A DNA stretch of 51,845 bases, from assembly GCF_003334315.1 (NCBI RefSeq), contig NZ_QOWR01000030.1. One strand, given 5' to 3'. Position 1 is the first letter of the stretch. Each line of letters begins with the position of its first letter. The notes beneath the pieces were generated by a model. It saw only the letters and a list, made by a program, of their open reading frames with translations. It did not search any database and was not told where the DNA came from. Both the position numbers and the translations under genes were made by a program. Source of the DNA: Escherichia coli. Its GTDB lineage: Bacteria; Pseudomonadota; Gammaproteobacteria; Enterobacterales; Enterobacteriaceae. Positions 38,650 through 39,642 of the stretch are shown piece by piece.

Positions 38650-39642
38650 ATGAGTAAAGTTGGTATTAACGGTTTTGGTCGTATCGGTCGACTGGTGTTG
38701 GGTCGATTACTTGAAGTCAAAAGCAACATAGACGTTGTCGCTATTAATGATCTCACTTCCCCATAAATTCTCGCCTACCTGCTGAAACATGATTCAAACT
38801 ACGGACCATTCCCCTGGAGCGTTGATTTTACGGAAGATTCACTTATCGTTGATGGGAAAAGTATCGCGGTTTACGCCGAAAAAGAGGCTAAAAATATTCC
38901 GTGGAAAGCGAAAGGTGCAGAAATCATTGTCGAATGTACTGGCTTTTATACCTCCGCCGAGAAATCGCAGGCGCATCTTGATGCTGGTGCGAAGAAGGTG
39001 TTGATTTCCGCCCCTGCCGGTGAAATGAAAACTATCGTTTATAACGTCAATGACGACACTCTGGATGGCAACGACACCATTGTTTCCGTGGCGTCATGCA
39101 CCACTAACTGTCTTGCGCCGATGGCCAAAGCCTTGCATGACAGTTTCGGGATAGAAGTCGGCACGATGACGACCATTCATGCCTATACTGGCACCCAGTC
39201 ACTGGTGGATGGCCCGCGTGGTAAAGATTTACGTGCTTCACGCGCAGCGGCAGAAAATATCATTCCCCACACTACGGGGGCGGCAAAAGCCATTGGTCTG
39301 GTGATCCCGGAACTGAGCGGCAAACTGAAAGGTCATGCGCAACGCGTGCCGGTGAAAACAGGTTCGGTCACTGAACTGGTATCGATTCTCGGAAAAAAGT
39401 GACTGCCGAAGAGGTGAATAACGCACTTAAACAAGCAACCACCAATAACGAGTCATTTGGTTATACCGATGAAGAAATAGTCTCTTCCGATATCATTGGC
39501 AGCCATTTCGGTTCGGTGTTTGATGCCACGCAAACGGAAATTACCGCCGTGGGCGATTTACAACTGGTGAAAACGGTCGCCTGGTACGATAACGAATATG
39601 GCTTCGTCACACAGCTTATTCGCACCCTCGAAAAATCGCTAA
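38650..39642 (+). pseudogene. gapC: gapC glyceraldehyde-3-phosphate dehydrogenase pseudogene (in-frame stop plus frameshifts)
   Basis: [38 protein letters not shown] then TAA at 38764..38766; homology continues in other frames (ORFs 38789..39004, 38998..39402, 39399..39800) including the active-site SCTTNCLAP. Confidence 0.85.

Follow-up and report, generated by a model that had tools for sequence, protein, structure and literature searches.

A gapC pseudogene of Escherichia coli with the K-12-type lesions and a second frameshift

The gapC remnant, its reading frames and its possible products

The window (the whole stretch of 51,845 nt of Escherichia coli DNA that was analysed) contains at 38650..39649, on the plus strand like all features of the gene described below, the gapC pseudogene, which is almost certainly a non-functional relic of the second type I glyceraldehyde-3-phosphate dehydrogenase (GAPDH) gene of this species. 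When aligned to K-12 and to intact alleles, it is seen to be the remnant of an ancestral open reading frame (ORF) of 1002 nt, which is now 1000 nt long. The gene is flanked by cybB (38497..37931, minus strand) on one side and by aldA (41130..39691, minus strand) on the other side. Just upstream of cybB, Rfam gives complete matches for the small RNA RydC (37857..37920, 92.5 bits) and for the sok antitoxin RNA of the hokB locus (37146..37297, 109.7 bits).

The GAPDH frame opens with the ATG at 38650 and is closed after 38 codons by the TAA at 38764..38766, as given in the preliminary description and confirmed by translation. This ORF (38650..38766) is the only one that is served by the native ATG. 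Past the TAA, the GAPDH homology keeps to the ATG frame for 211 codons (codons 40–250), as found by three-frame translation and by the alignments. It is in this frame that the active-site segment SCTTNCLAP (residues 149–157, at 39094..39120), whose presence had been noted before, is located, with the TGC codon of Cys150 at 39097..39099, and the original frame also holds the CAT codon of the second catalytic residue, His177, at 39178..39180. The homology enters a second frame only past the run of six A residues (A6) at 39393..39398, and the third frame comprises only the last four codons and the ancestral stop, past the missing T at 39636. There are therefore three frames in total, the first of which is the original ATG frame, and not three further frames after the stop, as had been described. 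The 3' boundary is also revised: the ancestral stop codon TGA, now out of frame, aligns at 39647..39649, such that the homologous end of gapC is at 39649, whereas the TAA ending at 39642, the boundary proposed before, belongs to the original frame and has no homology behind it. The window DNA still has the NAD-binding glycine motif (residues 5–14) together with the codons of Cys150 and His177, but these two codons are 3' of the TAA and are not translated by ribosomes that start at the native ATG.

When the reading frame is conceptually repaired, its translation scores 444.1 bits on the NCBIfam model of type I GAPDH (TIGR01534), covering profile positions 1–330 of 330, where the curated cut-off is 367.2 bits. 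This score reflects the ancestry of the DNA and not a present-day product. The products of the three real ORFs that were scored (38, 134 and 133 residues) reach 35.7, 208 and 76.3 bits, respectively, and none of them attains the cut-off. This is in agreement with the earlier assignment as a pseudogene, as is the RefSeq annotation, in which an identical sequence is flagged. The repaired protein of the window is the same as intact GapC, also known as EcGAPDH1 (WP_000048667.1), with Arg18Gly as the sole difference, and intact GapC is 100% identical to the protein of PDB entry 7C5F. The depositors of this entry showed the latter to be an active GAPDH that requires both Cys150 and His177 (PMC8615399). 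EcGAPDH1 is encoded by an uninterrupted ORF of 333 codons and is an active tetrameric enzyme (PMC8615399), whereas the ORF of the window is broken three times.

Ribosomes starting at the native ATG would halt after 38 residues, and no full-length enzyme would be made. Beyond the TAA, the next start codon in this frame is the GTG at 38998, and a product initiated there would be without residues 1–115 and would thereby miss most of the NAD-binding domain. From these lesions, and from the scores of the ORFs below the family threshold, we infer that a functional GapC protein is absent, which supports the previous suggestion that any expression would give only fragments. Glycolytic GAPDH is supplied by gapA, and presumably the loss of gapC is tolerated thanks to this gene.

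Comparison with intact alleles

The lesions were enumerated, as proposed in the preliminary description, by aligning the window with K-12 MG1655 and the intact allele of strain SJ7, and subsequently with six more alleles, at 96–99.7% identity. The nearest intact allele is that of strain STS63-2-E, a salad isolate, from which the window differs at four sites, none of these differences being silent. One of them is at codon 18 (38701..38703), which is GGT (Gly) in the window and CGT (Arg) in each of the six intact alleles examined, due to a C to G change at gene position 52. Arg18Gly is a derived missense change that is common to the window, K-12 and strain NCTC9080. Presumably Arg18 lies within the GRIGRxVxR stretch that is conserved in the NAD-binding domain of GAPDH. 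The ochre nonsense codon TAA is codon 39, in frame, where the intact alleles have AAA (Lys), and it results from an A to T change at 38764 (gene position 115). The other two differences are deletions of one base each, which bears out the earlier report of frameshifts. The A6 run of codons 248–250 (39393..39398) is A7 in the intact alleles, and K-12 has the same deletion as the window. At codon 330 there is a single T (39636..39636), where the intact alleles and also K-12 have TT, and this second deletion puts the last four codons and the stop outside the reading frame.

Among themselves, the six intact alleles differ at 52 synonymous sites and only 4 nonsynonymous sites, and therefore intact gapC is under strong purifying selection. 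On the pseudogene branch both of the two substitutions are damaging (Fisher p = 0.009 when compared with the variation among the intact alleles). The gapC of the window is 99.6% identical to a working copy. It is a young, recently disabled pseudogene rather than a heavily decayed one, and the word 'decayed' in the preliminary description was an overstatement for a gene with four differences, none silent, from its nearest intact allele.

Relation to K-12 and distribution of the lesions

The K-12 gene, formerly split into gapC_1 and gapC_2, is found at the same locus between cybB and aldA and has the same Arg18Gly, Lys39 to TAA and A7 to A6 changes. Its copy in RefSeq (named 'gap') is flagged 'frameshifted; internal stop'. 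Unlike the window, K-12 keeps the TT at codon 330, and the TT to T change is the sole difference within the gene. The gapC of strain CFSAN061761 is identical to that of the window, and it is annotated in RefSeq as 'frameshifted; internal stop; ... missing C-terminus'. The lesion had been described as being of the K-12 type, and this is correct for Lys39stop, A7 to A6 and Arg18Gly, which are as in MG1655, but not for the deletion at codon 330, which is absent from K-12 and from its listed derivatives. This extra deletion means that the window is not derived from K-12.

Outside the gene, the flanks of the window and of K-12 are 0.6% diverged, in a mosaic manner. The window is 99.40% identical to MG1655 over 31.4 kb, with 186 mismatches and 3 indels; this block is followed by a 1.6-kb deletion relative to K-12 and then by a block of 97.9% identity. 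The region 37052..40420, which includes gapC, has three differences from the MG1655 record, one of which is the T deletion. The same window is approximately 100.0% identical over 24.6 kb to at least 20 wild isolates, all of which belong to the T-deletion group.

Several features of this comparison with K-12 concern regions beyond the gene. When the divergence is followed over 18500..49945, there are 0 differences per kb at 18–23 kb and at 42–47 kb, 14–20 differences per kb at 27–33 kb and 27 differences per kb at 49 kb; such a mosaic is the usual signature of patches of recombination within a clade. The MG1655 record used (NZ_CP025268.1) has a T at 38603 in the gapC leader and a cybB variant at 37974, by which it is distinguished from the window as well as from the majority of the other alleles, and its cybB protein accession is unlike that of other strains. 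At 49937..49945 of the window, approximately 1.6 kb is missing when compared with MG1655 (K-12 locus L004, 31447..33049), whereby ynbB is lost completely, ynbC lacks its 5' part and ynbA is partly removed. The alignment blocks overlap here by 9 bases (49937..49945), which suggests a deletion between short repeats, and in related genomes the annotation at this site is that of a truncated 'class I SAM-dependent methyltransferase family protein'. The homology with K-12 ends at 51641. The last 204 nt of the window (51642..51845, beginning with GGTGATGATGCCAACTTACTGATTTAGTG...) resemble the start of an IS1 element and interrupt the homologue of K-12 ydbD; this end piece occurs in approximately 38–40 copies per genome in related strains.

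A set of 5426 complete E. coli genomes was searched, 5418 of which have the gapC region, and in these 5426 the lesions were counted with short exact-word megablast queries, each centred on one lesion and seeding only on the mutant allele, such that the counts refer to these words and not to aligned genes. The TAA allele is found in 1155 genomes (45-mer), the A6 allele in 1050 (46-mer) and the T deletion in 55 (43-mer); approximately 79% of the genomes are without the TAA allele. Carriers of the T deletion come from pigs, poultry, dogs, frogs, a pangolin, sediment and humans, and none of them is listed as a K-12 laboratory strain. Likewise, the listed genomes with the TAA or A6 allele include isolates from pigs, poultry, dogs, frogs, river water and humans. 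A composite query detects all three lesions at normal spacing in 53 of the 55 genomes with the T deletion. In the remaining two, a mobile element is inserted inside gapC: IS1 in cM2a and IS5 in W444. The IS1A copy of cM2a follows after about nt 597 of gapC (locus L011, 600..1357), and in W444 the IS5 element adjoins what is left of gapC, beginning near the active-site region (locus L012, 184..1234).

Approximately 110 genomes (113 by inclusion-exclusion) have the TAA but not the exact A6 word. One example is NCTC9080, which shares Arg18Gly and the TAA but has kept A7 and TT, and for which RefSeq reports an 'internal stop' only; genomes of this type number between 61 and 121. The gap between the counts of 1155 and 1050 arises because most of these stop-only alleles have three SNPs beside the A run and fail the exact word. 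The TAA combined with A7 on K-12-type flanks is seen in 3 genomes only, using a query with 35-nt flanks.

The lesions are thus nested: approximately 110 genomes have the first two changes (Arg18Gly and the TAA) alone, approximately 1000 genomes, including K-12, have the A deletion as well, 55 genomes, including that of the window, have the T deletion on top of these, and in two of the 55 the gene also holds IS1 or IS5. Such nesting is what one expects if gapC was inactivated a single time, in a natural ancestor, and has been drifting neutrally from then on. For the first steps, the order of events is likely rather than proven, because the 3' half of NCTC9080 is of a different haplotype, and this strain may have arisen by recombination instead of being a true intermediate.

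Since the K-12-type lesions are widespread and the window matches wild isolates at approximately 100.0% identity, these lesions mark a broad clade and not K-12 itself. The earlier proposal of a K-12-like lineage is therefore only weakly supported: the K-12-type lesions are indeed shared, but approximately 1050–1155 of the 5426 genomes have them, and there are 186 mismatches to MG1655 in 31.4 kb. The lesion pattern assigns the window to the broad natural clade that contains K-12 and, more precisely, to a small non-K-12 subclade, to which the T deletion at 39636 is specific.

Expression signals, alternative explanations and implications

The cybB–gapC intergenic region with the gapC 5' leader (38498..38649), including the GGAG ribosome-binding site at 38640..38643, was compared with that of an intact allele, and the 188 nt of 38462..38649 are identical to the region upstream of the intact STS63-2-E allele. 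A consensus promoter scan gives one match (38455..38484), which is no better than expected from shuffled sequence. In K-12, a ChIP peak of the RNA polymerase–sigmaS complex is observed in the gapC–cybB intergenic region (PMC4447067), and, according to PMC2949598, the gapC promoter activity is kept and responds to the environment in laboratory strains. Because the upstream region and the ribosome-binding site are unchanged and sigmaS polymerase binds in K-12, it is likely that the gene is still transcribed and the 38-residue peptide still translated. Downstream, between the convergent gapC and aldA genes, there is a GC-rich hairpin (GGCGGAGG-AAAAAA-CCTCCGCC, 39657..39680) with a predicted folding energy of -18.1 kcal/mol (z = -4.78), which is conserved in the compared alleles and is probably a terminator shared by the two genes. 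A consensus terminator scan does not return this hairpin at 39657..39680, because its T tract is short. The ORF at 39399..39800 (133 codons) exists as the T deletion bypasses the ancestral stop, and it runs through the hairpin and on, in antisense, into the 3' end of aldA; for this extended frame there is no sign of function.

The deletion of one A has converted GGA AAA AAA GTG into GGA AAA AAG TGA, thereby creating an in-phase A_AAA_AAG heptamer (39393..39399) that is directly followed by the new stop codon TGA at 39400..39402. This heptamer is identical to that of the dnaX-type -1 frameshift sites and is in the right phase, such that a slip restores the ancestral frame. Unlike the dnaX-type sites, the gapC heptamer is without stimulators, is not a configuration that the gene conserves as its normal state and was born of a deletion in A7. 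No Shine-Dalgarno-like GGAG, AGGA or GAGG is present in the 23 nt upstream of it, and the RNA downstream has no more structure than its shuffled versions (z = -0.28 and -0.06).

Three other explanations of these data can be considered. If the frame changes were homopolymer errors of sequencing or assembly, the gene would really be intact. Such errors are conceivable for the two deletions, which are single-base losses in or beside runs (A7 to A6, and AAAAATT to AAAAAT), and the three genomes with the TAA and K-12-type flanks that show A7 could be miscalls in either direction. The TAA, however, is a substitution and not a change of run length, the A6 run and the T deletion recur in 1050 and 55 independent complete genomes, respectively, the lesions are nested rather than scattered, and at least 20 independent assemblies are approximately 100.0% identical over 24.6 kb, including both indel sites. 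This explanation, which the preliminary description had named as a possible refutation, is virtually impossible, and sequencing error is excluded by the substitution that creates the TAA and by indels that recur, in a nested manner, in tens to a thousand assemblies. It has also been considered that the surviving pieces (the 38-residue peptide, the ORFs 38998..39402 or 39399..39800, or a regulatory transcript) have taken on a new role, for which the unchanged upstream signals of gapC, the sigmaS polymerase peak at the K-12 promoter region (PMC4447067) and the promoter activity retained in laboratory strains, as reported in PMC2949598, could be cited. Such a role is nevertheless extremely improbable, as Rfam finds no family match inside gapC, the 134-codon ORF 38998..39402 and the other ORFs are no more than what the lesions have left of the ancestral frames, interruption of the gene body by IS1 or IS5 is tolerated in relatives, and the accumulation of lesions argues against constraint.

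The heptamer raises a third explanation, in which readthrough of the TAA, together with a -1 frameshift at A_AAA_AAG, restores some full-length GapC. A -1 slip at this site gives back the ancestral frame and exactly the residues Gly-Lys-Lys-Val, and A_AA.A_AA.G ranks in the top three -1 heptamers of E. coli by efficiency (PMC4066793). The rate of shifting at this heptamer is nonetheless only approximately 0.3% without stimulators and at most approximately 3.7% in the best context (PMC4066793). The ochre codon is 209 codons upstream of the heptamer, and in the window a second frameshift follows at codon 330, where no slippery motif is present. Moreover, the uninterrupted ORF is the common state of the species (approximately 79% of the genomes), and the six intact alleles that were examined have A7. 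Since the uninterrupted ORF is the commonest state, the heptamer has arisen incidentally, when an A7 run before a G lost one A, and with no stimulators, an upstream ochre codon and a downstream frameshift, rescue by recoding is negligible; this explanation is extremely unlikely. The A7 to A6 lesion alone, being situated in the shift-prone A_AAA_AAG, would be slightly leaky. When the gapC promoter, which is still intact, is activated (in fresh water or in stationary phase), slippage at the A run combined with an ochre suppressor or with readthrough could yield traces of near-full-length GapC from alleles of the clade, which is considered very unlikely; if it were true, the recoded product of the window would also have an altered, extended C-terminus.

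The data are best described by a gapC gene that is a non-functional relic. This pseudogene is already known and is annotated as such by RefSeq in identical sequence, and the K-12 gapC pseudogene has been on record since the 1990s; as a finding in itself it is of little importance. PMC2949598, summarising Espinosa-Urgel and Kolter (1998), describes an intact gapC for environmental isolates and a mutated one for laboratory strains. In view of the many carriers that are not laboratory strains, the statement that laboratory strains accumulate gapC mutations (PMC2949598) needs a qualifier. The K-12 lesions are found in approximately one-fifth of the complete genomes, including those of many wild isolates; they were therefore inherited from a natural lineage, are not of laboratory origin and predate the domestication of K-12. 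The gapC locus provides a clean and countable nested inactivation series (missense and nonsense changes, a frameshift, a second frameshift and an IS insertion), which could be used as a lineage marker within this clade.
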